A stretch of 64,000 nt of DNA from Octopus vulgaris (taxonomy: Eukaryota): contig OX597816.1 in assembly GCA_951406725.2 (NCBI GenBank), forward strand, positions 176,886,001 to 176,950,000, written 5' to 3'. The stretch's first letter is position 1. Every line of letters begins with the position of its first letter. The translations under genes were made by a program, and so were the position numbers. Of this stretch, positions 3,747 through 61,696 are shown piece by piece. The notes under the pieces are model-generated. The model worked only from the letters and a program-made list of their open reading frames with translations, ran no database searches and was not told the origin of the DNA.

Positions 3747-4035
3747 GTCTCTGCCCACTATGCCTAGAAGGATTGTGAGGGGAGACTCCTCAGGCACCTC
3801 CTGTATCGGATCCTGTCAGAAGCAGTTGTCATTATGCTTTCTGGTTGGCTTCCCAAATGTGACCAACTGGGAATATAGAAATTATCCAACCATCTCATTC
3901 TTGTTAATGGCTTTTAGAGACACCATATTTTGTTATGCAACCATAATATACTACAAAGTATGTTAAATGCTTTATAAGTCAATATTGTGTCCTACTGTGT
4001 TATCAGTGCTATTACATGATTTTTTTTTTAAGTTT

Positions 4036-4403: not shown

Positions 4404-4439
4404 GACCTTATCAAGTGATCTCATTCTTAGTCTACCCTT

Positions 4440-7234: not shown

Positions 7235-7652
7235 GGCGCAGGAGTGGCTGTGTGGTAAGTAGCTTGCTAACCAAACACATGGTTCCGGGTTCAGTCCCAC
7301 TGCGTGGCATCTTGGGCAAGTGTCTTCTGCTATAGCCCCGGGCCGACCAATGCCTTGTGAGTGGATTTGGTAGACGGAAACTGAAAGAAGCCCATCGTAT
7401 ATATGTATATATATATATATAAGTGTGTGTGTATATGTTTGTGTGTCTGTGTTTGCCCCCCTAGCATTGCTTGACAACCGATGCTGGTGTGTATACGTCC
7501 CTGTCACTTAGCGGTTCGGCAATAGAGACCGATAGAATAAGTACTGGGCTTACAAAGAATAAGTCCCGGGGTCGATTTGCTCGACTAAAGGCGGTGCTCC
7601 AGCATGGCCGCAGTCAAATGACTGAAACAAGTAAAAGAGTAAAGAGAAAAGA
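7235..7652 (+). mobile_element. tRNA-derived SINE family A
   Basis: Head GGCGCAGGAGTGGCTGTGTGGTAAGTAGCTTGC...GGTTCAGTCCC (A/B boxes), internal (TA)n(TG)n, tail GACTGAAACAAGTAAAAGAGTAAA; at least 12 copies in the window. Confidence 0.9.
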
Positions 7653-11449: not shown

Positions 11450-11833
11450 GGAAGCACTCCGTCGGTTACGACGACGAGGGTTCCGGTTGATCCGAATCAA
11501 CGGAACAGCCTGCTCGTGAAATTAACGTGTAAGTGACTGAGCACTCCACAGACACGTGTACCCTTAACGTAGTTCTCGGGGATATTCAGCGTGACACAGA
11601 GAGTGACAAGGCCGTCCCTTTGAAATACAGGTACAACAGAAACAAGAAGTAAGAGTGAGAGAAAGTTGTGGTGAAAGAGTACAGCAGGGATCACCACCAT
11701 CCCCTGCCAGAGCCTCGTGAAGCTTTAGGTGTTTTCGCTCAATAAACACTCACAACGCCTGGTCTGGGAATCGAAACCGCGATCCTATGACCACGAGTCC
11801 ACTGCCCTAACCACTGGGCCATTGCGCCTCCAC
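11450..11833 (-). mobile_element. SINE family B
   Basis: Full copy with TSD ACCCTCAAGGT. Confidence 0.9.
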
Positions 11834-13157: not shown

Positions 13158-13437
13158 GGAAGCACTCCGTCAGTTCCGACGATGAGGGTTCCGGTTGATC
13201 CGAATCAACGGAACAGCCTGCTCGTGAAATTAACGTGTAAGTGGCTGAGCACTCCACAGACACGTGTACCCTTAACGTAGTTCTCGGGGATATTCAGCGT
13301 GACACAGAGAGTGACAAGGCCGTCCCTTTGAAATACAGGTACAACAGAAACAGGAAGTAAGAGTGAGAGAAAGTTGTGGTGAAAGAGTACAGCAGGGATC
13401 ACCACCATCCCCTGCCGGAGCCTCGTGGAGCTTTTAG
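13158..13437 (-). mobile_element. SINE family B, head missing
   Basis: Body and tail match the other copies; abuts a different SINE head-to-head. Confidence 0.85.
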
Positions 13438-13443
13438 GTATGT

Positions 13444-13782: not shown

Positions 13783-14079
13783 TAGGTATGGTGAACTGGT
13801 TTTGGCAAATAGGAACACTCAATGCTATTTTAAGGATGACCTGAATAGAGCCTGTGTCATTGATATTAATCAAATCAGTAGGAAGCTACTGAGGAAGTTC
13901 TCTGGAGATTGGTAACCTGGTAGAAGCAGAAAGGTTTCTTTTCTGTTAGACTGAAAATTTACACACTATTTATTAATCTCGTAAAGTATTGAGCCAGATT
14001 AATAAATAGTGTGTAAAAAACATCAAAACAATATTTCAGGTTTTCTAATATTATATATTGGTTTCAAATTTTTGCACAA

Positions 14080-14244
14080 GGCGCAGGAGTGGCTGTGTGG
14101 TAAGTAGCTTGCTAACCAACCACATGGTTCCGGGTTCAGTCCCACTGCGTGGCATCTTGGGCAAGTGTTTTCTGCTATAGCCCCGGGCCAACCAATGCCT
14201 TGTGAGTGGATTTGGTAGATGGAAACTGAAAGAAGCCTGTCGTA

Positions 14245-14292
<48 letters not shown>

Positions 14293-14496
14293 TGTGTGTC
14301 TGTGTTTTTCTCCCTACCATTGCTTGACAACCGATGCTGGTGTGTTTACGTCCCCGTCACTTAGCGGTTTGGCAAAAGAGACCGATAAAATAAGTACTGG
14401 GCTTATAAAGAATAAGTCCTGGGGTCGATTTGCTCGACCAAAGGCGGTGCTCCAGCATGGCCGCAATCAAATGACTGAAACAAATAAAAGAGTAAA
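14080..14496 (+). mobile_element. SINE family A (inside the local duplication)
   Basis: Full copy; counterpart at 16504-16908. Confidence 0.9.
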
Positions 14497-14844: not shown

Positions 14845-14894
14845 ACAGTATAATTGGTAGAGCGCCTTGCAATTTGAGCAACTATCTCTTTCTC

Positions 14895-15290
14895 TTTCTC
14901 TTTTACTTGTTTCAGTCATTTGACTGCAGCCATGCTGGAGCACCGCCTTTAGTCGAGCAAATCGACCCCGGAACTTATTCTTTGTAAGCCCAGTACTTAT
15001 TCTATCGGTCTCTTATGCCGAACCGCTAAGCGACGGGGACGTAATCACACCAGCATCGGTTGTCAAGCAATGCTAGGGGGACAAACACAGACACACCCCC
15101 CCCCCCCCCGCATACATATATACATATATACGACAGGCTTCTTTCAGTTTCTGTCTACCAAATCCACTCACAAGGCATTGGTCGGCCCGGGGCTATAGCA
15201 GAAGACACTTGCCCAAGATGCCACGCAGTGGGACTGAACCCGGAACCATGTGGTTGGTTAGCAAGCTACTTACCACACAGCCACTCCTGC
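14895..15290 (-). mobile_element. SINE family A
   Basis: Reverse-orientation copy with an internal poly-C variant. Confidence 0.9.
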
Positions 15291-15524
15291 ACCTCTTTAT
15301 CTTTTCTGTTCAAATCCCATCAGAGTTCATCTTGCCTTTCATCTTTATTGTCAACTACGGATAATTTAAAATCAATTTTAAAATAGAATTCTTAAAGTCC
15401 TAACATAAAAGAATAATACAAATGGAGAAAAAAAATAACCTTTTCGACAGTTAAAAAATGTATAAACTATGTTGCTACACTGAGTAAGTTGCCTTCCAGA
15501 TATATTCATCCTAATCTGTTTTAG

Positions 15525-15837: not shown

Positions 15838-16242
15838 CTCGTTTACTCGTTTACTTGTTTCAGTCATTTGACTGCGGCCATGCTGGAGCACCGCCTTTAA
15901 TGGGGCAAATCGACCCCGGGACTTATTCTTTGTAAGCCCAGTACTTATTCTATCGGTCTCTTTTGCCGAACCGCTAAGTGACGGGGGACGTAAACACACC
16001 AGCATCGGTTGTCAAGCAATGCTAGGGGGACAAACACAGACACACAAACATCCCCCCCGCATACATATATACATATATACGATGGGCTTCTTTCAGTTTC
16101 CGTCTACCAAATCCACTCACAAGGCATTGGTCGGCCCGAGGCTATAGCAGAAGACACTTGCCCAAGATGCCACGCAGTAGGACTGAACCCGGAACCATGT
16201 GGTTGGTTAGCAAGCTACTTACCACACAGCCACTCCTGCGCC
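15838..16242 (-). mobile_element. SINE family A
   Basis: Reverse-orientation copy with an internal poly-C variant. Confidence 0.9.
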
Positions 16243-16503
16243 TATAAATTTTTTTTTTTTTTTTTTTGTGTGATAAAAATTATGCAAGTTGAAATTGAAT
16301 GACTTTTCAGTTGGTTGAATGTCTGACTGTTTCACTAATTTCTTCTTTTGAAAATTCCTCAGCTGAGCCACAACATTTTTTTTTTCTGTTTTTTTTTTTT
16401 TTTTTTCAGCTAGCATTAAACTAAAACTCAGTTTCTGTAGACATCAAAACAATATTTCAGAAGGTTTTCTAATATTATATATTGGTTTCAAATTTTTGCA
16501 CAA

Positions 16504-16908
16504 GGCGCAGGAGTGGCTGTGTGGTAAGTAGCTTGCTAACCAACCACATGGTTCCGGGTTCAGTCCCACTGCGTGGCATCTTGGGCAAGTGTTTTCTGCT
16601 ATAGCTCCGGGCCGACCAATGCCTTGTGAGTGGATTTGGTAGACGGAAACTGAAAGAAGCCCATCGTATATATGTATATATGTATGCGGGGGGGGGTGGA
16701 TGTTTGTGTGTCTGTGTTTGTCCCCCTACCATTGCTTGACAACCGATGCTGGTGTGATTACGTCCCCGTCACTTAGCGGTTCGGCATAAGAGACCGATTG
16801 AATAAGTACTGGGCTTACAAAGAATAAGTCCCGCGGTCGATTTGCTCGACTAAAGGCGGTGCTCCAGCATGGCCGCAATCAAATGACTGAAACAAATAAA
16901 AGAGTAAA
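16504..16908 (+). mobile_element. SINE family A
   Basis: Forward copy with an internal poly-G variant. Confidence 0.9.
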
Positions 16909-18292: not shown

Positions 18293-18676
18293 GGAAGCAC
18301 TCCGTCGGTTACGACGACGAGGGTTCCGGTTGATCCGAATCAACGGAACAGCCTGCTCGTGAAATTAACGTGTAAGTGGCTGAGCACTCCACAGACACGT
18401 GCACCCTTAACGTAGTTCTCGGGGATATTCAGCGTGACACAGAGAGTGACAGGGCCGGCCCTTTGAAGTACAGGTACAACAGAAACAGGAAGTATGAGTG
18501 AGAGAAAGTTGTGGTGAAAGCGTACAGCAGGGATCACCACCATCCCCTGCCGGAGCCTCGTGGAGCTTTAGGTGTTTTCGCTCAATAAACACTCACAACG
18601 CCCGGTCTGGGAATCGAAACCGCAATCCTACGACCGCGAGTCCGCTGCCCTAACCACTGGGCCATTTCGCCTCCAC
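18293..18676 (-). mobile_element. SINE family B
   Basis: Full copy with TSD TATCCACAAAT. Confidence 0.9.
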
Positions 18677-20820
18677 TATCCACAAATATATTTTGTATGG
18701 TCCAATTGCAAGTTATCCACAGAGGAAACAATAATACTAGGAATGAAAGACCTTCTAGATATAGTTTGTTATTCCAACTTGCTCTTTTCTTGCCAGTTCA
18801 TGTAAAACACTCTGTCAAAACAGCCGTACACATTTATAACAGCCCTAAACTCAAACAATACTATTACTTCCAGTCAGTCTAAACCAGTGATTCTCAAGCT
18901 GAGAAATACCAGGCCTCTACAAAAAATATTAGTGAAATATTCGACAGTATCCCTTCTGTGAGTCCAAAACAATACATCGATAATTTAGTACCTTTCATGT
19001 AAACTACAGAAGGAATAAAACCAACTAATTCATTATTGCCTTGTTTCTAACTATCATTTTCAATATTTCCTCGGTGAAGTAAGTAGTAAGTAGTGAATAT
19101 ATCTTGTGTACCATTTTGAATTTCGTTCCTCCTGATGGTTCCAGAGAAGTCAAATCTATTGACTCTGTGAATAGTTAACTTTCCTAAACCTCTTGCACTT
19201 TAGTATGTGAATTACTTTATCAAGTTTTCTTTTTGTGATTTAGGTCTTTAACTAATTAATTAGGTGCATGTGTTGTTTTATCAAAAGTCATACTATATCT
19301 AAAAGTGCATCCAAACCTTGACATCATTCTCGTCTGTTTTCTTTCTCTTTATCAATAGCTATTGAATCTCTAATATTTCCAAGCCTTATATTCTATCTGT
19401 TGCTAATATTAACTGACAAAAGTCTGCTATTAATGGAAAAGGTTTGCTGCTGTTGATATTTTAAATCTAACATATCGTAATTATTAAAAGTAGAATGTGA
19501 AAGTTTTTTATTTCAAGGTGAAAAAGCTGCATTCCTCCCCTACAGTATAAAGAATTCCATCCCCTGCACATGCTAGTACTCAGTCTCCAGTGTTCACTCT
19601 TAGAAGCTCCATATTCTTAGTATTTTCTAAAATTTCCTGGCATTGAAAATGCACTTAAACTCTGAGATTTGTTGACATGATGCAAAGCTTAAATGCACCC
19701 ATAATAGTTGAAGAGTTGAAGTGGCTGTCTGCTATTAAATACTAGTAACCGAGACCATTTTAAAGAGAAATTCAATTTGCTGATTAACAACTTTCAGATT
19801 ATGACTATTGCCCTGTGTTTGTCCTCATCCTACAATAGGTTTTATTTTACAAATCTTCATTTCTCTTTCTCAAAACTATTTGTTGTAACTTTGATATTGC
19901 TTCTTCTGAAACTTGCCTTTTCCCTGAAATCCTGCCCCAATTGATACATTATGTCCTTAATTCTAAGAACCACTTCATTGTTAAATTTCATTACTCCATT
20001 GTATCCTGCAACACTGTAGCCATCCCCTTTCAAATTATCAATCTGGTATTTATTTTCTATCCATTCTGAACTGAAAGATGTCTCAGAATATGAAATCCCT
20101 CTTGTTCTCTCTATTTAGTAAAAAAGTAAAAGCTTGAAGATAAGAGAAAAAAAAAATGTTCTTTAAAAGTAAAGTTGAACTGTTATATGCAAAACCGAAG
20201 ATCATTAAGGAATTTCACTGATTGTTAGCTTGATCAAGCAAAGTGATTGGAAAAGACATTTCAGCTATGACCATTCCATCTTTTATTCAATTATTGTGTA
20301 TCTAGGACTTCATTAGCTAATGCACCAACCTTCTATATTTGAGTGAGGTTTATCTATTTCTAGCAAGTTAGTCAACTGTGTAGAGCCCCTTTATATTGTT
20401 GTAAAGCCAAATCAAAACTAACTCACATGGGGTTAAATTATCTTTTACAATCATTAGTGCTATATTTTTTTTCACAGACATAGGTTGGGTGGCTTTTTAC
20501 AACAGCATGTTTCCTTTTACTGTGACCTTCTGTTGTCTTAACTCTGAATACAAGAAACAAAATCTTTCCAGGCACATTTGCTGTAAGATTAAGAGGTGGA
20601 GCACTTAAAGCTTTAAAATATAACATTGTACAGATTTAATTTATGTAAGTGACACTAAAGTAGTCATCAGAATGAATAATCGCTAGAATTTCACTTTTCA
20701 CAATTATTAAAATTAAAAGAGCTGACTTCACTTTTATAATTAAAAGATCTATAAAACACTTGTTATTTGGAGACAATCTTGATTAATTATATATATATAT
20801 ATATCTTTTAATCATTTCAG

Positions 20821-21509
20821 TTGTTCTTGATCGAAAATATAACAAATGTTGTGATACAGGAAGTTTTGAGCTGGGTTACAAACAGAGTGTAATAAGTTGT
20901 CCTCTGTATCTTTGCTTAAACATGTCTATTGAAGGCCAAAGAATAAAGACCCCAACTTCAGTTGGGAAACAAATTTTGAGAAGTCCATCAGTAAGAAGTC
21001 CATCTGTAAGAAGTGCATTAGTAAGATGTTCATCCGTAAATAGCAAATTTAAAAAAGGAAATGAGTCGATGCCAAAAGATATGGATCGAATCTCAGGCTC
21101 ATTAAAATATAGAAAAAACACAAAAAGTGTCAATTCAAATTGCCAGTTTTTGAATGATATGAATGCTGTAATGAATATTAATAGAAGCAAAATATGTAAA
21201 CCCAAAGCTTGTTTTGGAAAATTTCGAACTATTAGACCAAAGGAAGAAAATGGAGATCAGTCACTACTTGTAAGTACGAGTTTTGGAGAGAGACAGTTTA
21301 GATCACGAAATAGTAAAAATATACTTCTTACTCAACGAAACAGAAGGAGTCCAGAAATCAAATCTTTTAAGCAACAGAATCATAAACTGTCTCTTACTGA
21401 ATGTAGGAGTTCCAAAGAAGCTTTCAAGGCTCATGTACGTAAAACTTTAGTTCCTAACATTGCTCACATAATATTTCCAATGATCTCTAGAATTTCTGCA
21501 TTGAAATAA
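20821..21509 (+). CDS. TTLL3: TTLL3/8-like probable terminal coding exon with basic, Ser/Arg-rich tail
   Basis: tttcag| acceptor, phase 1; VVLDRKYNKCCDTGSFELGYKQ matches the conserved VVxDR..CDTGxFELxYKQ block; in frame with ORF 20922-21509; AATAAA at about 21815 and 21968. Confidence 0.85.
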
Positions 21510-22313: not shown

Positions 22314-22510
22314 TTTTTACTCTCTTTTACTTGTTTCAGTCATTTGACTGTGGCCATGCTGGAGCACCACCTTTAATCGAGCAACTCGACCCCGGGACTT
22401 ATTCTTTTTATAAGACCAGTACTTATTCTATCGGTCTCTTTTGCCGAACCGCTAAGTAACGGGGACATAAACACACCAGCATCGGTTGTCAAGCAATGCT
22501 AGGGGAACAA

Positions 22511-22541
<31 letters not shown>

Positions 22542-22712
22542 CATATATACGACGGGCTTCTTTCAGTTTCCGTCTACCAAATCCACTCACAAGGCATTGG
22601 TCGGCCCGGGGCTATAGCAGAAGACACTTGCCCAAGATGCCCCGCAGTGGGATTGAACCCGGAACCATGTGGTTGGTAAGCAAGCTACTTACCACACAGC
22701 CACTCCTGCGCC
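22314..22712 (-). mobile_element. SINE family A
   Basis: Full reverse copy. Confidence 0.9.
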
Positions 22713-23490: not shown

Positions 23491-25135
23491 TTTATTTCAT
23501 AAATATTTGCCATGAAGGCATTACAAAGCGGGGACAAACAAGAAGAGACAAACAAAAGCTATAGTGATTAAATATTTACAATTTAAAAATACAATAATTT
23601 AATGAAAATGTTTATAATTTTTGACTTAAGCATTGCTCATTACAAATGAAATTTGTAATGGCTTCTCTGAAGGATAGGCATCCGACCACCAGGGTAGACC
23701 CCTTGCTTTTTCTTTCCTGTTTTTGGCTTCCACTTAGCTGGTGCCAAACACTCCCAGCTTCCTCGCCACAGGCTTCCATCTTCGCATGAATCTGTCTCGT
23801 GACAGGTACCTTTTCTCCAGCCTGATCTTATTACTGAGGTGGTAACTAAAAAAGTTAACCAACCCCTGGCCGGATACAAAGGTACCCGACACTATGCCTC
23901 TCACACGCGTCTTCCATACTGTTTCTTTCAGTATGGCTACAACACAGAAAAAGCAAGCCTTCCTTTCCTTGTTAAGGGAAGGAGGCGGTACAATCTCGAT
24001 GATAGATTCAGCTGATAGCTGTACTCTTCCCATCGATGACAACAGTTGCTCTGCGAAAACTATCAGTCTCGTTAATTCTGGATACTCCACAAATGCATGC
24101 AAGACAGTTTCCCTGTACTGCCTGCACCTTGGACATGTCAGCAAGACGGCATGTCCATGCTTTGACAGTTTATCATGAACAGGTAACGCTACACTGCCAA
24201 GCCAGAGATTTCTGGTAATTGTCCAGATACCCTGGCCTGAAAGTTCTCCGGAACAGGTTGATTAACTGATTTTCATCGCAGCCCAGGGGCTCCCCAAGGC
24301 GTCTTCGGACTTAACCTCCACTAACCCACTATAGAAATCCACAGTGGAATCCCTATTGCCGGCATTGCCCACTCAAGAGAGTGGCTGAAGTGCCTGGTGG
24401 CACTCCAATTGCCAGTTCCCCAGCCTAGGTCTCTGCTTGATCCAATTACCAATGTCCGTTAAGGACGTTAATTGCGAAAGGTAGAACCGAGTGTGCGGTG
24501 ACTACACCTGCTCTCCATCCAGGTAAAGCCAGAGGCGCCTCAACCTTAACGTGAATTTTTGCATCCTCAGCCAAGGCATCCCTAACCTACCCTTTAGCGG
24601 TTTCTGGTATCAGACAGAGTGCTTCACGAGTGGCTTTCCTCCCTTCCACAAAAAGCAGAAAAGGATTCTCTCCAACTTGTTCAGCCACAAATCAGAGCAA
24701 GGTACCACGGTCAGACGGTAGGTGATAACCGATGCTATAAACGTCTGCACCACCTCTGCCTTTCCTAGCAAAGATAACGCCTGCCCAGACCAGGTCTGGG
24801 TTAGAGCAGTCACCTTGCTGGCCACCTCACTCCAATTTTGCTCTATCTGGAGGTCTGGCCCGAACCAGACTCCGAGCAGCTTAACAGGACCTTCCGTCCA
24901 ATGCCCCATGATGTTATTGGATAGCATCAGCTTGCCCCTCCAGGTACCGAGCTGCAAACCAATTGACTTGTCCTTGTTAACCTTTGCTCCTGCCACCGCC
25001 TCGTAACTTTTGATAGCCTTTTCCACCACTGGAAGCTTTATATACAAAAGTGGGGACAGGGGACACCCCTGACACACTGGGCGCTTGATCCTGAATGGCT
25101 TTGAAAGGAAACCATTCACTTTTATGACGGACTCG
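23491..25135 (-). mobile_element. Tx1/L1-clade LINE, 3' portion (inverted copy)
   Basis: Reverse complement of ~27270-29056 with an internal deletion spanning YADD; C-terminal CPRC...ETVLHAF zinc motif. Confidence 0.9.
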
Positions 25136-28100
25136 TACCAGGGATAAATATATCATGGACACATTAAAGAAACATCACACCATGGAGCTGTTGCAGCAGT
25201 CTGAAGGCACGGAAGAGAGATGTGCCTGGATACCAGAAAAACTGTATAATGAAATGAAGGGTAGGCATCCGAGAGCCATCACGAACATCCCGGACCTTCC
25301 ACGGTATTTGAAGGAGCAGGAGGAAAGGACTGCCTCACGTGTGGTGAGGTCAGCCCCAGCATCACCAATTAAAGAAAAGTCAAAGAGTAAGTAGAACCCT
25401 TGCTTTGCTTTTGTTTTAAATGACTGCACTTAACCTTGGGTGTTTGAATGTGCGTGGTCTGAGCTTGAAGTGGAAGCAAGCTTGTTTTCACGATATGCAT
25501 GTGATGGTTGCTACAGAGACCAAGCTGGACAGTCTACAAGCCCTCTCGCCCCTCCTGAATGACTATGAGGAAATCATGTCGCCTAGCTCGACTGGAGGGC
25601 TAGGGGGTGTAGTAGTACTGGTTCGAAAAGGCTTGGCTCTGCAGACAAATACAGTCTATGTAGACCCAGAAGGTGGGCTGGTTGTCCTTGATGTGACATA
25701 CAGCAGTAAGGCCTTCAGGTTGATCGGGATCTACGCACCTTGTGCTAGAGGATTTCAAACTGATTTTTATCGGCGCCTAGAGAACTTTCTCGGGACGTCA
25801 AAGACATTAGTGGTGTTAGGAGACTATAATGCTATTGTTGATGCATGCATCGATAGCGTTGGCTCGATCTATAGGAAAGTAAACTCACGTCTCATAAATC
25901 TGCTCAAGCGTTTTCAGCTGGCTGATCGTTACAGACTTGACCATCCGAACGTCCCAGAGTGGACCTGGATGAGTGGCGACGGAAGGTTCAAGTCCTATTT
26001 AGATAGGATAGTGATAAGAACTGGAGATAAGTCTAGTTTTAGCTGTCCACAGCATGTCCAAGTAGCTTTCACTGACCATAGAATGGTTAAGTGTTGACTG
26101 GACATAGATAGTACAGTTAAGAGAGGATCCGGCTACTGGAAGCTGAACAAGTCTATCTTGACTTGCGAGGCATACTGTAGCGGGATTGAGGAATTAGTAC
26201 AGAGGGCGTTAACCGGCACAGTGATTAATAACTGATGGTGGTTCGCCCTCAAGGGAGCCATTCGTTTTGAGTCTATTAGGTTTAGCTGTCAGCTAAGACT
26301 AGATAAGGCCAGAATAGAAGGGCAACTAGTTAAGGACGTAAAGGAGGTGTTGAGGTTGGGCTCTGCATCTCACATTTTGGCAGCGAGAACGGCCTTGGAC
26401 CATTACCTCAAAGACAAACATGAGGGGTGCAGAGTTCGGGCTAAAGTGTGTGCATTGGGCCGTGAGGGAATTAATGTTGCCGGATGGGACCGTACGGTAG
26501 AAACCCAACTTGGCAATGATGCCACAATTAGGTCTCTTGTGGATGACAATGGGTGTTCGGTCGATGGACGGGACGAGATATGTGAGGCGATTCACAAGCA
26601 CTTTGCCGAGTTGTTTGGGAGTGGCGGGACGCTGGATCATGGCGAGGCACTTAGGGACTTCCTGTCTGGCGGCCCGCATCTCTTGGCACAAGAGGCTGAG
26701 TGCTGTGAAGGGCCAATCACGGCCAAGGAGGTGATCTAGGTACTGGGCGAATGCCCCGGGGAGAAGTCACCGGGTCTCGATGGTCTACCCTATGAATTTT
26801 ATAAAAGTATGCCAGACTTGTTCGGGCACCTGCTGGCCAGAGTCTACACCAATTGGCAGCAGAATGGGAGAATTCCCAAGTCTGCGAGCTGGCGGGTGGT
26901 GACGTTGATCAGGAAGGACCCGAGCAAGGGGGACGAAATAAGGTACTTCAGGTCCATAACTCTGCCGAACACAGAGTTAAAGATTTTCGCCAAGGTGTTA
27001 GCGAAAAGGTTGGCGCGGGTCGTGGACAAACTTTTCGGAGAAGCGCAAATGTGCGCTATCCCGGGCAGGATGATCCACGACAATCTCCGCCTTATTCGCT
27101 ACTTCTTAGAGAGGGTGGGGAAGCTTTCTGGGGGGGGGGGGCACTGGTACATTTAGACCAGTCTAAGGCATTCGATAGGGTCAACCATTGGTACTTGGTA
27201 GCGGTCCTCGAGAAGGCTGGCTTGGGCCCGACTTTCCGCAGTTGGATTGCTGCGTTGTACAGCAACATCGAGTCCGTCGTAAAAGTGAATGGTTTCCTTT
27301 CAAAGCCATTCAGGATCGAGTGCTCAGTGTATCAGGGGTGTCCCCTGTCCCTGCTTTTGTATGTACTGGCTCTCGAGCCATTACTGCAGAAGTTGGAGAC
27401 ACTAGGGGGCGCACCGCATGATCTACGGTGTGGAAGAGGAGCTACAGTGTATGCAGATGACATCTCCATCATCATGGTGGATGAGGGCCAGCTTCCAGTG
27501 GTGGAAAAGGCTATCAAAAGCTACGAGGCAGTGGCAGGAGCAAAGGTTAACAAGGACAAGTCAATTGGTTTGCAGCTCGGCACCTGGAGGGGCAAGCTGA
27601 TGCTATCCAATAACATCATGGGGCATTGGACGGAAGGTCCTGTTAAGCTGCTCGGAGTCTGGTTCGGGCCAGACCTCCAGATAGAGCAAAATTGGAGTGA
27701 GGTGGCCAGCAAGGTGACTGCTCTAACCCAGACCTGGTCTGGGCAGGCGTTATCTTTGCTAGGAAAGGCAGAGGTGGTGCAGATGTTTATAGCATCGGTT
27801 ATCACCTACCGTCTGACCGTGGTACCTTGCTCTGATTTGTGGCTGAACAAGTTGGAGAGAATCCTTTTCCGCTTTTTGTGGAAGGGAGGAAAGCCACTCG
27901 TGAAGCACTCTGTCTGATACCAGAAACCGCTAAAGGGTAGGTTAGGGATGCCTTGGCTGAGGATGCAACAATTTGCGTTACGGTTGAGGTGCCTCTGGCT
28001 TTACCTGGATGGAGAGCAGGTGTGGTCACCGCACGCTCGGTTCTAACTTTCGCAATTAACGTCCTTAACGGACATTGGTAATTGGATCAAGCAGAGACCT

Positions 28101-29056
28101 AGTCTTGGGGACTGGCAATTGGAGTGCCACCAGGCACTTCAGCCACTCTCTTGAGTGGGCAATGCCGGCAATAGGGGTTCCACCGTGGATTTCTATAGTG
28201 GGTTAGTGGAGGTTAAGTCCGAAGACGCCTTGGGGTAGACCCTAGGCTGCGATGAAAATCAGTTAATCAACCTGTTCTGGAGAACTTTCAGGCCAGGGTA
28301 TCTGGACAATTACCAGAAATCCCTGGCTTGGCAGTGCTTCTTTGTGGTGTTACCTGTTCGTGATAAACTGTCAAGGCACGGAAGTGCCGTCTAGCCAACA
28401 TATCCGAGGTGCAGGCAGGACAAGGAAACCATCTAGCATGCATTTGCGGAATGTCCGGAATTAACGAGACTGATAGTTTTCGCAGAGCAACTGTTGTCAT
28501 CGATGGGAAGAGTACAGCTATCAGCTGAATCTATCATCGAGATTGTACTGCCTCCTTCCCTTAACAAGGAAAGGAAGGCTTGCTTTTTCTGTGTTGTAGC
28601 CATACTGAAAGAAACAGTATGGAAGACGCGTGTGAGAGGCATAGTGTCGGGTACCTTTGTATCCAGCCAGGGGTTGGTTAACTTTTTAGTTACCACCTCA
28701 GTAATAAGATCAGGCTGGAGAAAAGGTACCTGTCACGAGACAGATTCATGCGAAGATGGAAGCCTGTGGCGAGGAAGCTGGGAGTGTTTGGCACCAGGTA
28801 AGTGGAAGCCAAAAACAGGAAAGAAAAAGCAAGGGGTCTACCCTGGTGGTCGGATGCCTATCCTTCAGAGAAGCCATTACAAATTTCATTTGAAATGAGC
28901 AATGCTTAAGTCAAAAATTATAAACATTTTCATTAAATTATTGTATTTTTAAATTGTAAATATTTAATCGCTACAGCTAGTTCACCCTTTTATGTTTGTC
29001 TGTCCTTGTTCGTCCCCTCTTTGTAATGCCTTCATGGTAAATATTCATGAAATAAA
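25136..29056 (+). mobile_element. Tx1/L1-clade LINE, 5'-truncated and pseudogenised (end of ORF1, ORF2 APE-RT-CCHC)
   Basis: APE motifs LNVRGL, TETK, GIYAP, GDYN, LDR, TDH; GSGYWKLN linker; RT motifs KSPGLDGLPYEFY, LDQSKAFDRVNH, QGCPLS, YADD; several stops and frameshifts; 3' end ATGAAATAAA. Confidence 0.93.
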
Positions 29057-29487: not shown

Positions 29488-29870
29488 GGAGCGCTCCGTC
29501 GGTTGCGACGACGAGGGTCCCAGCTGATCCGAATGAACGGAACAGCCTGCTCGTGGAATTAACGTGCAAGTGGCTGAGCACTCCACAGACACATGTACCC
29601 TTAACGTAGTTCTCGGGGATATTCAGCGTGACACAGAGAGTGACAAGGCCGGCCCCTTGAAATACAGGTACAACAGAAACAGGAAGTAAGAGTGAGAGAA
29701 AGTTGTGGTGAAAGAGTACAGCAGGGATCACCACCATCCCCTGCCGGAACCTCGTGACGCTTTAGGTGTTTTCGCTCAATAAACACTCACAATGCCCGGT
29801 CTGGGAATCGAAACCGTGATCCTACGACCGCGAGTCCGCTGCCCTAACCACTGGGCCATTGCGCCTCCAC
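29488..29870 (-). mobile_element. SINE family B
   Basis: Full, slightly more diverged copy. Confidence 0.9.
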
Positions 29871-35460: not shown

Positions 35461-36097
35461 TCATCATTATCATCGTTTAACGTCCGTTTTCCATGCTGAC
35501 AAGGGTTGGATGGTTCGATCGGGGTCTGGGAAGCCAGGAGGCTGCACCAGGCTCCAGTCTGATCTGGCAGTGTTTCTACAGCTGGATGCCCTTCCTAGCG
35601 CCAACCACTCTGTGAGTGTAGTGGGTGCTTTTTACGTGCCGCCGGCACAGAAGCCAGTCAATGCGGCGCTGGCATCAGCCATGTTCGGATGGTGCTTTTT
35701 ACGTGCCGCCGGCACAGGTATCACAACTACTATTTCCATTGATATTTATTTCGATGTTTATGTACTTGACTCAATAGGTCTCCTCAAGCACAACAGGTCA
35801 TGTGCCACTGGCACAGAAGCCAGTCGAGGCAGCGCAGGCATCGGCCACGTTCGGATGGTGCTTTTTACGTGCCGCCGGCACAGGTGTCGTAACTACAATT
35901 TCTATTTGATATTTATTTCGATGTTCATGTACTTGACTCAATAGGTCTCCTCAAGCACAGCAGGTCGTTCTGCAATCCAAGGTACTTTGAATGGGCTGGG
36001 GCTATGCGAAACTGGTGCAGGAAGCAGCCCGGGTCTTTGCAGTCACAGCATATCTCCTGAGATCTCGGTTCTTCGTCATTGCCTCTGTGAGGCTCAA
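35461..36097 (-). mobile_element. RTE LINE 3' end (last ORF codons plus tandem-repeat 3' UTR)
   Basis: On -: LTEAMTKNRDLRRYAV, like the ORF end at ~50920-50970, followed by family C sequence. Confidence 0.8.
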
Positions 36098-36153
36098 AAA
36101 CGCCATGCTGTGGGACTGAATCCAGAAGTATATGGTTGGGAAGCAAGCTTCTT

Positions 36154-37534
36154 TACTTCAATATTTTGCCATAAAAGCATAACATAGAGAGGAGACTACA
36201 AAACATGTGGGGACATATAACAATTAAAAATATGTAAACATAAAATACGATTCTATGAGTGACGTGAAAATGAACATGAGAAAATAAATTAAAGTTATGA
36301 TAACATGTATGATATCTGAAAATGAAAACATGAAGAGTGTGTTACTCACCCCACACTGAGTAACACCACTTGCTGCCTCTGAGTCCTACTTCCTCTTTAG
36401 TCTCTGGTCTAGTCCTATTTCTGCTCTCGCTATCGCTCAATGACAACACTCTTTCGTAACCTTTTTCACCGGGGGAGGGGGTCTTCTAAATTCTGTGATG
36501 TCTGCTCTTTTTCTTTTTTCCTGTCGGGAAAGTGGTGAATGGGTCTGAGTGGTCTTGAATTGGACTCAGTGTTTTTTCTTTTCTTCCCTCTACTCTCTGT
36601 TACTATCCATTCTCCCTCCTTTCCTCTGTCTTTCTTTTTTTCCTCTCTTTTCTCCTCTGTCTCCACAACTAGTTCGTCTGTTGTTTCATCTATTATTTTC
36701 TTCTGTAGAAGGAAGTGTGCTCTAATGTGGCCCTTTTGGCCACATTTAAAACAACATGGGACTCTGCCCTCCACCCACACTCTTAACACAATTTCTACCA
36801 ATGCCACCATCTCTGCCAGACCCTCTAGCTGCTTCTCCTCTACCTGCAGGATGATATCCAGTGATTTCGCTCTCAATCCTCCTCCTTCCGTTTCCGTGGC
36901 TTGGAGGACAGCCACCTTTTCCTCACTTCCAACGAGGACAGCTGCCATGACCCAAGCCACTTCTATATCAGGTGGGATTGCTTCCACCCTTACCTTGGAA
37001 GTCTTTCTTCCAAGATATGTGGGCAGAAGCACCACCTCTTCTGTCCTCATCGCCACACTCGCCTCCTTCACTGTCCTAAACTGGATGATCACTGTCCTGC
37101 ATTTACATCCTTTGGTTCAACTGTTTCTTTAGCGCTTTTTCTATTATTTCCGCTTCCATCTGTTCAGCCTTTTTGTTCTTCAGGGAGTGCACCCTACAGG
37201 TGATAGTTTTCCTCTCCATTTGCTCCATGATTCTTTTAGGTGGCAACAACTTCACATTGCCACCCACCTTCTGCGTCATTCTTCTATATTCCTTTAGTCC
37301 AGCCAGGTCTACATCTTTTCTTTTTATCTCCGCCACCTCAGAAAGACTTCTTGTTCTCTCCAATATTCTGTCCAGTCTTCTCACCGCCTTCACCAGCTCC
37401 TCCTCCGTTGAAGACAATTCAGACCCGCTAAAGTCTGAATACATTTTCTCTAAACTGCTGCCAAACAGCACAAAAGTCTTGTCTGACTCTCAAAAAAACA
37501 AACCAGCAACTTAATCAACACATGCGCAGTAACC
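36154..37534 (-). mobile_element. ORF1-only non-autonomous Tx1-like retroelement with a 15-bp TSD
   Basis: TSD GGAAGCAAGCTTCTT at 36139-36153 and 37535-37549; frameshifted gag-like ORF1 (37471-36466) with zinc knuckle CFKCGQKGHIRAHF (last Cys lost); no APE or RT; 3' tail similar to the LINE at ~29015-29056. Confidence 0.85.
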
Positions 37535-38117
37535 GGAAGCAAGCTTCTTACCACACAGCCACACCTCAGTACTGAAAAGATGAAAAGCAAAGTTGACTTT
37601 GATAAAATTTGAACTTGAGCTGGAAGATATACTGCAAGGCATTTTTCCTACATCTGTCCATAATAATTGATGCAAGGCCAGCGATTATTGAGGTAGCGGA
37701 GGGGGCAAGAATTAGTTGATTACATTAACTCCAGTACTTGACTGGTACCTTTATCATTTTATCAAACCAAATGGACGAAATTTGAGCTGGAGGTAAAGAA
37801 CTGGAAGAAATACCACAAGGCATTTTCCTGATGCTCTAACAATTCTGCCAATAATAATGATAATAGTTCTTTTCTAATTTTCCCACAAAGCCAACAATTT
37901 TGAGGGGAGGAGAAAATTGATTACATTCATCCCAGTACTTGACTGGTACTTTATTTTATCAATCCTGAAAAGATGTAAAGCAAATTTGACCAAGGTGGGT
38001 TTTGAACCCAATGCCAAGGGCTGAAGATACATAATTCATGGTATTTTTTTAATACTCTAACAATTCTGCCAATCTATAACCCTTAATTCTTTCTGATTTA
38101 GGCATAAGCAGGTAATA

Positions 38118-41909: not shown

Positions 41910-42670
41910 CATAGAGGGTGTTCAGGCTAAATTTCTTCAGGAACACTATGATGTACCAGTGAACATCATTGGAGAGCAAAAAGATTAAATTTGTAGTTGA
42001 GAAAAAGTTAGCTGATGCGGAGGAGTGGGAAGAGTTAGGTGTATCATGATGATTTGCACTGAATATCAAAATGCTGACATCATGACTGCTGCTCAGTACT
42101 CTGTGAATACTACGAAGACTGTAAGACGTGACATGGACAGCTGCAATAGAGACTATAAGGCTGTGGTTAGAAAGAAGGGAAGAAGCAGACATTCTGAGTG
42201 TGTCCACACAGAGTTCATCCAACAACTGATGAACAGAGCCTTAGGCTCTGAAGCTGCTGGAAGGCTATGTGCATGGCAGCAGGATTCAACTCCTTGCCAT
42301 ATCTCCAGAAAGAGGCAGAAGTGGGTGTCAGAGAATTTCTATGACTTTGTCAACCCCAATTCCTGGCTTCCTGATTGTAATCTCATGGATTACTATGTGT
42401 GGGCTGCAGTTGAGAAAGACATCAACCACTCTACCTGCACCACCAAGGCCAAGCTAGTGCCCAAAATCAAGGAGGTATTCAAAGATCTTCCCAGGGACAC
42501 ATGCAGTGAAGAACGCATGCACCGGGTCCCAAGGGCTTTTGAGGCTGTGGTGGAAGTTGAGAGCATCTACTTTAGGTGAACTGTTATCTTTTATTTACTT
42601 TTATTTTTGGATGGGATATTGTATTTTTTGTTTCCTTTTATGCAAACTGTCAAATTTAGATATACATCCT
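41910..42670 (+). mobile_element. Internally deleted Tc1/mariner-superfamily element
   Basis: WQQDSTPCH...PDCNLMDYYVWAAVE motifs of the DDE/D domain fused to an N-terminal remnant. Confidence 0.8.
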
Positions 42671-45660: not shown

Positions 45661-46470
45661 TTAAAATGCAAAATTTGGTAAGCTCTTATCACGGGTAACT
45701 TCACCACCACAACTATCAACAGATGTCTGAAATCCATTTATTAGCAATTGTGAAGCAGATTTGCCAACAGCAGGGATTAACGCTTGTCCATTTTGGGTGC
45801 TAGATTTATTAGGGAGTGGATTTTCTATTTGTCTCTCAGAGACAGGCATAGAGTAGTGGTCTGGTTTAGGAACCTTGCTGTGAGAATACATTACCTTTGG
45901 GCTGATTTTACCAGAAGAAGAAGGCTTTTGCTCAGCAGGATCTTTTACAATCAAATCTTCTTCACTTATGTGGAGCTTAATATTATAGCTATCCTCACTG
46001 TCACTGGAAGAATGGTTGGAACTTGAGAGCATTGAAGTTAAAGAATGCTCATCATTATTAAAAGTGTCAGTTTCAAGAAGCCCATCACATTTCAAATGAC
46101 TATCACAAGGCAAATTCTTATTCAAATTATGGTTACATCCTTCAACAGGAGGATTTGGTTGACTGTGGTTTGGTTCAGCATATATCACTTGAGTTTCAGG
46201 TAAAGCAATATCTAGACCATTGGAAAGAGTTTCTTTATCTGTAAGCTGAGTAGCAGAAGACACAGCAGATAAACGGTGCCGTTTAGGAAGCTTTAATACA
46301 CCATTCTGGGTGTCATTTACTCTTTCTTTTGGCAACTTGTTAGATGAGAAGCTCTGCATAAGTTTGGTATTCCCATTTGGAATGCATCTTTCATTGTAGC
46401 TCACTGACGGTACCTCACTGAATGTACTCTCTTGGATATTATTCGTATAACATTCATCAGTTGTTTTCGT
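45661..46470 (-). CDS. Terminal coding exon of the same gene (Ser/Asn/Pro-rich, probably disordered cytoplasmic tail)
   Basis: 810-nt open frame in otherwise stop-rich AT DNA, preceded by a strong polypyrimidine gcag| acceptor; phase 0 matches the upstream exon; ends ...KSLPNFAF*. Confidence 0.75.
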   Translation of the reverse strand, partial: TKTTDECYTNNIQESTFSEVPSVSYNERCIPNGNTKLMQSFSSNKLPKERVNDTQNGVLKLPKRHRLSAVSSATQLTDKETLSNGLDIALPETQVIYAEPNHSQPNPPVEGCNHNLNKNLPCDSHLKCDGLLETDTFNNDEHSLTSMLSSSNHSSSDSEDSYNIKLHISEEDLIVKDPAEQKPSSSGKISPKVMYSHSKVPKPDHYSMPVSERQIENPLPNKSSTQNGQALIPAVGKSASQLLINGFQTSVDSCGGEVTRDKSLPNFAF

Positions 46471-47466
46471 CTGCAAAAAGGGAAAAAAAAACCATTATTA
46501 GACCAAATTTAACAAAATCTTTATATCATGATTAATTTTATGATTACATTTAACAAATATATATATTAAGATAAATATTAATGATTACTTTTTAACTGAC
46601 TCCTTTATATAAGTGAGGTAGAAATATTATTATTTAATTGCTGAGATATTACAAGTTTCTTATTACCGTCTTAAAAAATTAGAGCCACAAAATGAAAATT
46701 CAACCACTTTGAGTTTCTTTATATTGTGTAATACTAAGACCTTCCCCGCTTCTTTTTTAAACATTTGATCCAATTTTTTCCTCTCTTTTAACATCTAAAA
46801 CTAGAGTATTTTTGAAAAAAGTTGCCTGGCAATCTACGATGAGCTAATAAAGGTATTGCTTATCTCTTGCTTGTGTACCATTTAGCAGATGATAGAAAAA
46901 TGTCACTCTGGTTAGGAAGCAGGTCTACAGCAAAAATTTCTGGTACCTATACCTAGTAGCATAAACTAAAGCAAGGTATGAACACACAATTCTTGAAGGT
47001 ATGAACACACAATGAACACGCAAGGTATGAACACACAATTCTTGAACTGATCTTCCAAGTAACATTTTGTCTTAAACCAATATACCAGATGTGATGAAGA
47101 AAATAAATTAAAGGCTTAGTGTCACAATGCACATAAAAAAGGACATTTATACAGTCTAAGTAAGTGACTCTCTTCTTAAAACTGAGTAATTAGAATAAGA
47201 ATATCCTAACTGCTATAAATGTTCATTTCTTTTGACTCTGTTCAAAGCCTTATCTGTTTTATAGCACTGTAAACAGAATCTTATGACACACATAAATTAA
47301 GTGAAATAGCATCAACCAAATATTAAAATCACATCATGGTTTCAGCTTGTCATACGACCTGTGAGAATATTATTTAGATTAGACACTAATGCGCAATTTA
47401 ATTTAGCTTTCTTTTACTCCTTTCAATCCAGGTTTAGAGGATATAATAAATGGTAAGATTCTTGAA

Positions 47467-47874
47467 GCAGGAGTGGCTGTGTGGTAAGTAGCTTGCTAAC
47501 CAACCACATGGTTTCGGGTTCAGTCCCACTGCGTGGCATCTTGGGCAAGTGTCTTCTGCTATAGCCCCGGGTCGACCAATGCCTTGTGAGTGGATTTGGT
47601 AGACGGAAACTAAAAGAAGCCTGTCGTATATATGTATATATATAAGTGTGTGTGAATATGTTTGTGTGTCTGTGTTTGTTCCCCTAGCATTGCTTGACAA
47701 CCGATGCTGGTGTGTTTATGTCCCCGTTACTTAGCGGTTCGGCAAAAGAGACCGATAGAATAAGTACTGGGCTTACAAAAGAATAAGTCCTGGGGTCGAG
47801 TTGCTCGATTAAAGGCGGTGCTCCAGCATGGCCACAGTCAAATGACTGAAACAAGTAAAATAGTAAATAGTAAA
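47467..47874 (+). mobile_element. SINE family A
   Basis: Near-full forward copy. Confidence 0.9.
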
Positions 47875-56400: not shown

Positions 56401-56990
56401 ACTAATATGATAACCACTGTTATCAACCCAGTAATTTTTAGAAGTTTTGTCACCAAGGAATTTTATTGGTGAGCTTTGATTTTTTTTCTATTATATATTT
56501 TTTACTAGAAATAACCGTATTGCTACTATAATGGTTTCTATTCTTCTGGTGTAGTAGACTACAAACCTTTTTACCAAGGCATACCTGATACAGTTGTCTC
56601 TCTATTGCCTATCATTCTTACCAATAGCCATAACTTTCTATGTCTTTAACCCATTTGATATTAACAACTCCAACCACATTTTTTCTTGAATGTATTGACC
56701 TGTAAGTATGTTCAAACTGAACATCAACAGACCAGAAGGACCTGCTAAAGTCATAGGCATTACCCCTATACTCTAACTAACTAATTAACTTATTGACTGC
56801 AGACTAATTTCAACAATGTTTATGATTAAGGTATAACATGACTAGACTCTACAGTTATTTATTCTGTTGAAGAATCTTTGCTTTGTACAGATCTAAATAC
56901 ATAAAAGGTTTGTTTATATATCCTGTACAAAACCAATTGGTATCATTGTCTGTAATGGATTTAGAATACTGTATACATTGATTTTTATAT

Positions 56991-57150
56991 ACAGGAGTGG
57001 CTGTGTGGTAAGTAGCTTGCTAACCAACCACATGGTTCCGGGTTCAGTCCCACTGCATGGCATCTTGGGCAAGTGCCTTCTGCTATAGCCCCGGGCTGAC
57101 CAATGCCTTGTGAGTGGATTTGGTAGACGGAAAACTGAAAGAAGCCCGTC

Positions 57151-57204
<54 letters not shown>

Positions 57205-57411
57205 TTGTGTGTCTGTGTTTGTCCCCCTAGCATTGCTTGACAACCGATGCTGGTGTTTACATCCCCGTTACTTAGCGGTTCGGCAAAAGAGACCGATAGA
57301 ATAAGTACTGGGCTTACAAAGAATAAGTCCCGGGGTCGATTTGCTCGACTAAAGGCAGTGCTCCAGCATGGCCGCAGTCAAATGACTGAAACAAGTAAAA
57401 GAGTAAAAGAG
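56991..57411 (+). mobile_element. SINE family A
   Basis: Near-full forward copy, followed directly by SINE family E (~57418-57768). Confidence 0.9.
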
Positions 57412-58211: not shown

Positions 58212-59765
58212 TTATTATAATAATAATAATAATAATAATGAAATTATTGTATCCAGTGCTCAGGTGCACCACAACTTATCAGAAAGTGCGTATAAAGCAT
58301 ATGCAGTAATGTAGAAATGTCTGGAAAGCGAACAATGTATGAGTCAGATACATGCTTGTGTGTGTATGGAGGGGAGAAAATCAAGTGTAGTGTTGGCGAA
58401 TCTCAGGAAGCATGGAAGTTTTGAAGGATGCAGTGCTCCGACAACTAACAACTGATGCTGGCAGTTTGTTCCATGCTTCAGCAACTCTCAGCGTGAAAAA
58501 ATGTTTCCTGAAGTCATGGGAGCTGTGCTGTTTTCTGACTTTGTAAATATGTCCATGGGTGTTAGATGGGTGGAGTTTGAAAAGGTGCTCAGAGTTATTG
58601 TTTGTACGATGGTTAATAATTTTATGGGTGTCTGCCAAGTCAGCTGCCAGACGTCGGAGTTTCAATGTGTCCATGCCCAGGGAAGTAAGGCGTTCAGGAT
58701 ATGGCAAATGCCTGATGGAGAGTATTCTTTTGGTTGCACGTCGCTGAACAGCTTCCAGACGATTGATATCCTGGGCAAGATAAGGGTTCCAGACCGGTGA
58801 TGCAAATTCCAGGTGAGGTCTTACCATAGCTATATAAAGCCGCAGATAGATAGCCGGAGAGCGGCTCACAAAGGATTTGGTGAGTGATGCCAAGACACCC
58901 TCAGCCTTCTTGACAATTTTAGCGATGTGTTTTGTCCAACGCAAATCACTGTCGACAATAACACCCAGGTCACGTTCACATGAAGACTTTTTGAGACTAG
59001 TGTTGTGGAGGGAATAGGTGGACGCTGGGTTTCTCCTCCCAAAATGCATGGTGGTACATTTGTTCACAGCCAGCTTGAGTTGCCAGTCCATGATCCACTG
59101 CTGCATTGTGTCCAGGTCTGCTTGCAATAGAGATCCATAGTGTACAGGATTTGACCTCTTTATTTCGAGGTACAGCTTGATGTTATCTGCATATTTCAGC
59201 ACTGTGGCATACTTTAAGTTGGCATCTATGTCATTAACATATGCAACAAATAAAAGGGGGCCAAGAACAGATCCCTGTGGTACACCAGATGTCATCTCAT
59301 AGGGCGAAGAGTGCTGTCCTAGAACTGTGACAACCTCTTTTCGGCTGAAAATAAAGGACTTCAACCAGTTATAGAGTCCGTCTATTACACCCAATGCAGA
59401 AAGCCTCACCATAAATCTTTTGTGTGGCACAGAGTTAAAAGCCTTAGCAAAGTCCAGGTAAACAACATCCACCCAGGATCCGCGATCAGTGATTTGGGTA
59501 ACGTCCTCAAGAAACTCGATGAGTTGATTACAGCAGCTGGAGTTAGGAATAAATCCGAATTGTGACGGCTGGATGAGGCTGTGAGACTTCCAGAAGGTTT
59601 TTCTGACACAGGATTCCATCAGTTTGGCGATGCAGCTAGTAAGACTGACGGGGCGATAGTTGACAGGCGATGTGCGGTCGCCTTTTTTGAACAGAGGGAT
59701 GACACTGGCAGTTTTCCACTGTTCTGGAGTAACACCATTGTCAAGACAGAATTGGAAGAATAGAG
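58212..59765 (-). mobile_element. CR1-clade LINE, 5'-truncated, RT frame still open
   Basis: YRPVSLTS, DVVYLDFAKAFNSVPH, SGVPQGSVLGPLLF, YADN (catalytic D to N), ERDLGV, RPHLEFASPVWNP, FFTLRVAEAWNKLP; (TTA)n 3' tail at ~58212-58240. Confidence 0.92.
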
Positions 59766-61696
59766 AAAGTTGGCTTAGAAGAAAGTACCCACCGCGTTTG
59801 AGAAGTTCTATGATGGGGTTCTTACAATGGATTTCAGTGCACTGTGCCTCCTGCACACCCACTCATCCCTTTTCATATTATTTTGCGTCTTTGTCCTTTC
59901 TACACTACAATAAAACGGTAGATACTTTCATCAGTAAGAACAATGGTTAGATTTCGTTGTCCTTAATCCCAAGTCAAAAGGCTGAATACTGCTATTATAT
60001 ATTAGCCCGACTTTTGAGAAATATCAGTCAAGAGGTATTTTAATTAGTGTTGTTAATATTTTCTTCTGTTTTCATGGCTTTACTTGTATCGATATGTAAC
60101 ATGATTCTATACACTGACAATTGAATCCATAATATAACAGAATGAAGGGTCATATAAAAGACCAAAAAAAGATTAAAGGATAATTAATGAAATTGCTTAA
60201 ACAACACTGAACTCCTGTGTTACGATAATTCTCTCCAGGAGCTGAAAAGCTGAAATGTGATTGCACCCCATCTTACCATTCTAATTTGATTCTCTTGTAA
60301 GTTACAAGAAAATACTTTGAACAGAAAAATAGTAGTATAAATATTATTTCCCTGGGTGGTAAATTGTTAGAGAAATCAACTGATAAATCTAATAAGAAGA
60401 AATTAGATGTGTCTCAACTGTGTTTGGTAGCAGTCTAGCTCTATCCAAGATGTATAGATTTAGAAATATAGGTCAAGCTATCAAATGACATAGCAAAAGT
60501 TTTACACCAATTTCAAAGTCTTAAAATTGTTTTATAGTTTTGATTATGTTATGTCAAAGGACTGATTATTTCTGTAAAATGAATTAATGTGACTGTAAAT
60601 AAATACACTGAAATGAGATACTTTGAGGCATGCTGTTTTCCCATTGAATTTTAATGTTACTCTAATATGTGTTTATAAAAACGAATATGAAACATTTCAA
60701 AAACTTCATTTATTTAATAATTTCATTTTGATGAAATGTGATCTGTGAGAAGAAGGTGCTATTACCCTTTGTGAATGCCAGACCAAAGTAAGAAATTTTT
60801 CACAGCTTTTATTGCAATTTTAGTGTTGTTGATACTAATAGTTAGAATTTGAAATTTAATTCATTGTTGAATTCAGATTCCCTTAGTTTAAAATAATTTT
60901 CAGATATAGAAAAATATACATATATTAAAATTCATATTAGTTTATAATAGATTTATACTCAAATATTAATTAAACAAAAAACTTTATGATGAGTAAGCAT
61001 ATATATATAGTTACTTGTTCCCATTGCTTTATGCACCCAACCATATAATCTAAATCCATTTTCATCATTCTAAGATTTCTAAAGTGGATGAGTTCTTACA
61101 AAATCTTACAATTAAGCTGAATGTATGAACTTGCACCTCATGTACACACACTAATTGGATTATCTCTTCTTAATTTATTACATGCTTTTAATTAACAAAT
61201 TGCCAGTCTCCTCTTTTGATCCTTCTTTTCTAATCCTCATTTATTATTATTTTCAATTGAAAAATGTTTGAAAAAAGTTACCCTAAAATGATTACAGAAA
61301 TTGATATATAATCATGGAAAAAGTTAAAAATTTTTTTACAAAATATTAAAAATGTTGTGTACCATGGAGATATTAAACAGGAATTGAGATAAAAAGTAAA
61401 ATGGTACAAAAGATAATGAGAAAAGAAAGTCATAGAAATGATTATTAAGATACATGAGTAGACTTAAATACTATATTACGATTACCTAAAAATGGTATGT
61501 ATATACCTTAAAAGCTCTATAGCATAAATTCTAAGGTGTTATCTAAAACATTTATGATCGAAACCATAGAAATTGGAGGAAAAAATATTTAACAAGATGT
61601 GTTACACAAAACTATGAAAATTTTTTCATTATTTTGATATTCAAAATAATTATACAACAAATGTAAAATAAGAAAATTGGTTTATTAAATACTTAC

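Follow-up and report, generated by a model that had tools for sequence, protein, structure and literature searches.

A decayed, ORF2-less LINE derivative at a SINE-head nucleotide shared with an L1/Tx1-like LINE in Octopus vulgaris

Is a LINE derivative that has kept an ORF1 and a 3' tail without ORF2 one copy of a family carried by a site-specific partner, or the product of a single deletion? This question is raised by a locus on contig OX597816.1 of Octopus vulgaris. Within the 64,000-nt stretch that we analyzed (the window; positions 176,886,001 to 176,950,000), a minus-strand unit of 1381 bp lies between perfect 15-bp direct repeats (Table 1), the sole repeat of at least 7 bp between its two ends. 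Excising the unit together with one repeat rebuilds a SINE head that can be aligned with the 10 intact heads in the window. A first-pass annotation, made from the letters alone, had proposed a 1381-bp element between perfect target-site duplications (TSDs), which the repeats and coordinates bear out; the end that it assigned to the element, 37566, takes in 17 bp of the host SINE head. The unit, present in one copy in the 64-kb window, is a real LINE derivative without ORF2; its boundaries are clear and its shared target is credible.

Table 1. Coordinates of the ORF2-less unit, its host SINE and the neighboring LINE copies (positions within the window)
Feature	Position	Strand	Remarks
Host SINE head, 5' part	37550..37566	-	A-box-like 11-mer at 37551-37561; aligned to the first bases of the 10 intact window heads
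5' target-site duplication	37535..37549	.	15 bp; 13 bp if the 2 outer G's are assigned to the element
ORF2-less unit	36154..37534	-	1381 bp
Leader, putative 5' UTR	37445..37534	-	90 nt, between TSD and ATG
ORF1, first frame	37121..37444	-	108 codons from the ATG at 37444; 60% identical to P0019 over 107 aligned residues
Frameshift	37117..37120	-	Unit about 17 nt shorter here than P0019, its closest relative
ORF1, second frame (P0001)	36466..37116	-	216 codons; ferredoxin/RRM-like domain, damaged knuckle, charged basic tail, early stop
Ferredoxin/RRM-like domain in P0001	about 36760-37005	-	
Damaged CCHC knuckle in P0001	36712-36753	-	Last Cys replaced by Phe at 36712-36714
Early stop in second frame	36466-36468	-	
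Purine-rich segment	36340..36465	-	Defined by composition; presumed deletion junction inside
T-rich 3' UTR with short A-rich end	36154..36339	-	Last 35-45 nt common to the LINE; candidate 4-bp hairpin at 36167-36179
3' target-site duplication	36139..36153	.	15 bp
Host SINE head, remainder	36102..36138	-	B-box-like motif at 36113-36123; SINE homology stops here
L1/Tx1-type LINE, 5'-truncated and decayed	25150..29055	+	ORF1 end, endonuclease, RT, 3' UTR; ends at the unit's SINE-head nucleotide
Second 3' piece of the same LINE, inverted	23493..25135	-	Also ends at that SINE-head nucleotide
Young host SINE copies	7228-7645, 14079-14495, 14892-15294, 15843-16245, 16500-16907, 22314-22712, 47462-47870, 56988-57410		

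The insertion point lies directly behind the A-box-like motif and splits it from the B-box-like motif, both labels being assigned from a consensus. In searches for a tRNA origin of the SINE head, ARAGORN returned 0 genes and Rfam no tRNA match. Where homology to the host SINE ends, at about 36102, the head gives way to another repeat, which includes a 166-bp tandem duplication at 35636-35966 (region 35466-36100). The eight near full-length copies of the young host SINE, none of them interrupted, have a mean pairwise identity of 93%; interruption is seen in three heads, all of them in more diverged SINE copies.

The ORF1 of the unit is decayed, as seen from the frameshift, the replaced knuckle cysteine and the early stop, and it carries several further indels. 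The single open ORF1 described at first pass is thus split into two frames. In the first of these, 64 of 107 residues are identical to the Octopus bimaculoides protein P0019 and the start codons coincide. Support for the "intact 5' end" of the earlier description is limited to this start codon: the leader upstream has no comparable homolog, and its fold is no better than that of shuffled sequences. The second frame does contain the CCHC knuckle that had been reported (Pfam zf-CCHC E 0.009, below the curated cut-off), but in the damaged form listed in Table 1. Excess decay of the unit was not borne out by a conserved-column test, in which it departs from the majority residue at 3 of 17 columns, a value in the middle of the range for 51 relatives.

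A full HMMER search with the unit's ORF1 returned 195 relatives at E 0.001 or better; the family counts given here rest on the 150 that were listed. Thirty of these were examined, and 14 carry an organism name (13 Octopus and one Argonauta). Most of the 150 are short fragments, with 14 reaching at least 300 aa, and three are chimeric gene models in which ORF1 is joined to zinc fingers, Helitron or LDL repeats; endonuclease or RT domains were found in none of the 150. The zinc knuckle is present in relatives, and a language-model search returned CCHC and ZCCHC3-type RNA-binding clusters at 0.87-0.91. Word-indexed protein searches yielded 0 matches for the ORF1 second frame, 0 for the C-terminal piece of ORF2 against longer proteins and 2, both already known, for alignment A2; these blanks carry little weight because the full HMMER search gave 195 relatives. 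A scan of bacterial and archaeal genomes returned no relative of the unit. P0097, a false match to a copia gag, was excluded from profile work.

The RRM-like region was assessed on a model of the relative P0003, residues 41-124 of which are predicted with confidence to form a four-stranded, two-helix domain (beta-alpha-beta-beta-alpha-beta). This modeled fold is compatible with an RRM, as had been suggested, but is no proof of one, as ACT, S6 and RRM folds all match it (Z 7-8, best about 8, none ahead). Foldseek gave no match at E 0.001, and no L1 ORF1p structure was among the structure matches listed. An ORF1 of the RRM plus CCHC type has been linked to Tx1 in PMC5203782.

Seven of the 150 listed relatives have a C-terminal domain in common. 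No frame of the unit matches a profile of these seven (140 to 200 of 200 shuffles reach the score), which was built from 11 slices minus four that failed leave-one-out, and compared with these relatives the unit lacks both ORF2 and the ORF1 terminus. The relatives closest to it (P0002, P0004 and P0026) likewise have no score on this profile. The nearby LINE's own ORF1 end scores 7.1 bits, a level that 0 of 200 shuffles attain in what is a single weak test made post hoc, and a profile of all 11 members found nothing in the six-frame translation of the window. A cluster of four records (P0151, P0154, P0155 and P0156) has an open ORF1 of 309-384 aa that ends in a basic tail with no C-terminal domain, a candidate for a second ORF1-only form or a host-captured gene. 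The end of P0002 at the unit's stop was considered as a shared junction and rejected; P0002 appears to reach this stop in a shifted frame.

The ORF1 family is tied to ORF2 DNA like that of the nearby LINE by the fusion in P0140 (three near-identical records). The N-terminal part of P0140 belongs to this ORF1 family (38% identity to P0001, E 6e-13) and reads on without a frame change into a stretch that has 55% identity to the post-RT part of the window's LINE (E 1.5e-12). P0140 is a sporadic ORF1-to-ORF2 deletion with a junction unlike the unit's. A match of P0090 to ORF2 (E 5e-4, 15 aa) was taken as chance.

The statement that the unit has no ORF2 held: tblastx against the window, which contains a LINE ORF2, detected no ORF2-like sequence in it, and tests for a remnant were not significant. 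The "~310-nt 3' UTR" of the earlier description was measured from the early stop; about 185 nt of it (36154-36340) are T-rich and UTR-like, whereas 36340-36470 is purine-rich, as is the coding part of the unit. If this segment is read as an ORF2 end, the full 347-nt tail aligns collinearly with it as starting point (reached by 0 and 1 of 1000 shuffles), but the idea was rejected as unproven: without the last 50 nt, 233 and 416 of 1000 local-composition shuffles match and at least 20 of 1274 unrelated sequence windows score higher. That the segment opens a C-terminal domain of ORF1 such as those of P0026 or P0004 was likewise rejected as unproven (700 to 4848 of 5000 shuffles).

The nearby LINE has the features of the L1/Tx1 group, with an APE endonuclease, an RT and a C-terminal zinc region in ORF2, and its Tx1 label rests on architecture and target specificity rather than on phylogeny. 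The closest solved structure to its endonuclease is that of human L1 (E 1.9e-6), zf-RVT matches the sister copy at E 5e-4, below cut-off, and the RT comparison returned generic RT clusters only. Both LINE copies and the unit end at one SINE-head nucleotide in the same orientation to the SINE, in agreement with the shared target first proposed. This accounts for 3 of 3 3' junctions in the window, a small sample in which at least two are independent. By simple arithmetic (13 heads, 10 intact and three interrupted, in 128,000 strand-positions, with the LINE pair counted as one event), the chance of a second element at the same nucleotide is about 1e-4.

The bodies of the two LINE copies are 96.5% identical and have two nonsense codons in common, whereas identity between their SINE flanks is 83-89%, the level of unrelated copies (Fisher p 2e-7). 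Two histories may account for the pair: a template that was already defective inserted twice, or an inverted duplication arose with a template switch in the SINE head. The shared nonsense codons would fit the copying of defective templates, and local duplication also explains them. The two copies lie head-to-head, neither has a 5' TSD, and their SINE flanks share a rare head variant.

The last 34 columns of the unit's tail are identical at 27 of 34 to each of the two LINE copies, and 0 of 5000 end-anchored shuffles reach the match for either copy. When the whole 317-nt tail is used, 6 and 5 of 2000 shuffles reach the score, and no LINE similarity upstream of the last 50 nt is significant after local-composition control. 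The shared LINE 3' tail of the first-pass annotation is thus real over the last 35-45 nt, but the nearby LINE is not the parent: because the similarity is limited to this stretch, the unit derives from a sister family and has no recent origin in the nearby LINE family. All three tails can form one hairpin of 4 bp with a 5-nt loop, in which two pairs have changed on one side to G-U and none on both sides. It is part of the minimum-energy fold in one of the three tails (z-scores -0.3 to -1.45, none better than shuffles), and we treat this candidate terminal hairpin as a lead.

We tentatively favor the reading that the unit is a copy of a replicating ORF2-less rider family, to which we give slightly less than an even chance; this and the other likelihoods expressed below are judgments, not computed values. 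On this reading, an octopod lineage of L1/Tx1 type that targets the head of an abundant SINE would have given rise to an ORF2-less derivative, of which the unit would be a dead copy. The unit would have been transcribed as a 1.4-kb RNA, the last 35-45 nt of which may be bound by the ORF2 protein of an autonomous relative, probably a sister of the nearby LINE and not necessarily that family. ORF2 would nick the SINE head just past the A-box-like motif, on the strand offering a T-rich 3' end, priming would occur on the A-rich RNA end, and target-primed reverse transcription, which we infer from the TSD and from established LINE biology, would copy the RNA in. A staggered second cut 13-15 bp away would produce the duplication, and the inserted copy would then have decayed through the frameshift, the knuckle change and the early stop.

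Several observations argue for a rider family. The perfect TSD encloses both the ORF1 start and the 3' tail, and all of ORF2 is gone yet both ends are kept, which would be rare for a random deletion. The unit shares nucleotide and strand with the LINE at the low chance estimated above, and its terminal tail match is beyond all end-anchored shuffles. None of the listed relatives has an endonuclease or RT, the three chimeras join ORF1 to neighbors other than ORF2, and the four-record cluster has an open ORF1 without the C-terminal domain. There is also a precedent for a trans-mobilized ORF1-only rider of a site-specific LINE in TRE5-A.2 (PMC3159450). The reading is weakened by the single copy in 64 kb and by P0140, which shows that sporadic deletions occur. 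The absence of endonuclease or RT fusions is a weak argument because so few of the listed relatives reach 300 aa, and the TSD and shared tail do not discriminate, being expected under every model, a deleted full-length copy included. A functional HAL1-type ORF1 is disfavored by the broken state of the unit's ORF1, in which the C-terminal domain of the seven relatives is missing. The three-tier system first envisaged stands insofar as SINE heads, an ORF2-bearing LINE and an ORF2-less unit with a related tail meet at one nucleotide, but its further step, trans mobilization as a repeated HAL1-like family, goes beyond what one copy with a decayed ORF1 and a diverged tail shows. Taken as a whole, a more specific proposal is unlikely: a replicating Tx1-type octopod ORF1-only family with a fixed target behind the SINE A box and a 40-nt terminal hairpin shared with autonomous sisters, whose insertions would kill the SINE promoter and whose shortened ORF1 would be selected.

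A one-off deletion, whether after insertion or at the RNA/cDNA stage, has about an even chance when both forms are combined. In the first form, a full-length autonomous LINE of a sister family would have entered the SINE site, and a genomic deletion would later have removed about 3.5-4 kb comprising the ORF1 C-terminal domain and ORF2, with no rider family involved. The single copy in the window, the missing C-terminal domain, the other indels in the unit and a 125-nt internal deletion in one neighboring LINE copy are consistent with this, as is P0140 with its different deletion; however, both breakpoints would have to be confined to narrow windows to erase ORF2, no significant ORF2 remnant is present, and full-length copies are a minority of LINE insertions. 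We regard this history as possible, though not the one we would choose. In the second form, which we consider quite improbable, a spliced or template-jumped autonomous transcript would have inserted once, a dead end like SpIREs. Such loss would yield a TSD, a 5' end and a 3' end in a single copy, and precedents are the spliced insertions (SpIREs) of human L1 (PMC5860796) and the template jumps described for R2 (PMC3414825). A stray ORF1 retrocopy unrelated to LINE machinery, matching site and tail by chance, would suit a similarity of only about 35 nt and the 5 to 6 of 2000 shuffles that reach the score on the 317-nt tail, but is largely refuted and very improbable given the end-anchored shuffles, the identical target nucleotide and strand, and the link from this ORF1 family to ORF2 DNA in P0140.

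Non-autonomous LINEs with an ORF1 are a recognized class, represented by HeT-A (Jockey), HAL1 (L1) and Ag-Sponge (CR1) in PMC5786205, PMC5753468 and PMC5537684. As these elements are described in PMC5786205 and PMC5753468, the unit resembles them in having an ORF1-bearing 5' part and a 3' tail with no ORF2; they are multicopy and have an ORF1 protein, whereas the unit is one copy with a broken ORF1 that lacks the C-terminal domain. Measured against the HAL1-like class, the unit has a LINE-type ORF1 with a leader, no ORF2, and a LINE-derived 3' end with a TSD, but not an intact ORF1. Its ORF1 is RRM-like with a knuckle, its clade is Tx1-like, and Tx1 stands outside the class list published in PMC5786205. 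In Dictyostelium, TRE5-A.2 is an ORF1-keeping, ORF2-deleted rider of a site-specific LINE that is mobilized in trans, for which a short 3' module suffices (PMC3159450). That mobilization was tested for TRE5-A.2, and for the unit we infer it. According to the same source, contact between ORF1 and TFIIIB directs TRE5-A to sites about 50 bp upstream of tRNA genes, whereas the unit lies inside a SINE head at a fixed nucleotide. We do not file the unit as a member of HAL1 or TRE5-A.2 because its ORF1 is not intact and copies were counted in the 64 kb only; by analogy, it would work like either if it were repeated.

Tx1 families are described in PMC4494074 as targeting other transposons, with Xenopus Tx1L in Tx1D and a crocodilian three-tier nest of Tx1-Mar, SINEU and Mariner-N4_AMi as examples. 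That nest is like the window in combining a host transposon, a target-specific Tx1 LINE and a non-autonomous rider at a common target. The hosts of Tx1-Mar and Tx1L are DNA transposons and the rider is a non-coding, snRNA-headed SINE (PMC4494074), whereas the window has a SINE-head host and an ORF1-carrying rider. R2 and R2/R1 SIDEs are also riders of site-specific LINEs, internally deleted with the 3' end kept, the R1-site copies having 14-bp TSDs, but unlike the unit they are non-coding, target rDNA and have a 5' ribozyme (PMC3414825). Dada DNA transposons are reported to target tRNA A-box regions (PMC8869645). In Octopus vulgaris, a 2026 annotation assigns 11.6% of the genome to SINEs and counts 80 L1-Tx1 families, 13 of them recently active (PMC13282606). 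The words "ORF1", "non-autonomous" and "target" do not occur in the main text of that annotation, nor "ORF1", "non-autonomous" and "HAL1" in its supplement (PMC13282606). In the literature searched, which consisted mostly of listings and had Repbase and Dfam outside its scope, we found no Tx1-derived ORF1-only family and no Tx1 targeting a SINE head. Every component has a precedent; the combination of a Tx1-type, ORF1-only element with a SINE-head target in an octopod would be new.

If the short form is a family, the Tx1 lineage would join the few LINE clades with ORF1-coding riders, and the unit, lacking the C-terminal domain, would offer a natural test of why riders retain ORF1 and which part of it is dispensable. 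Should it instead be a one-off deletion, nothing but the target preference would remain of interest, the unit itself being ordinary debris. Family or not, two diverged elements lie at one SINE-head nucleotide in the window. Given the abundance of SINEs and L1-Tx1, an endonuclease that targets SINEs and uses a 40-nt tail signal would give a tractable case of retrotransposon-on-retrotransposon targeting.

The window holds further repeats and frames. Three open frames are without Pfam matches; by eye, that at 42016-42579 (+) looks like a Tc1/mariner transposase fragment, and those at 45661-46494 (-) and 20787-21509 (+) look like host exons. A repeat family of about 380 bp is present in copies that are 94% identical (3368-3746, 11453-11833, 13161-13439, 18296-18676 and 29490-29870), and the ORF1 relative P0081 contains translated pieces of it. 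At 58381-59862 (-), a 493-codon open frame with an RT domain (E 1.9e-32) belongs to a LINE of a different type.
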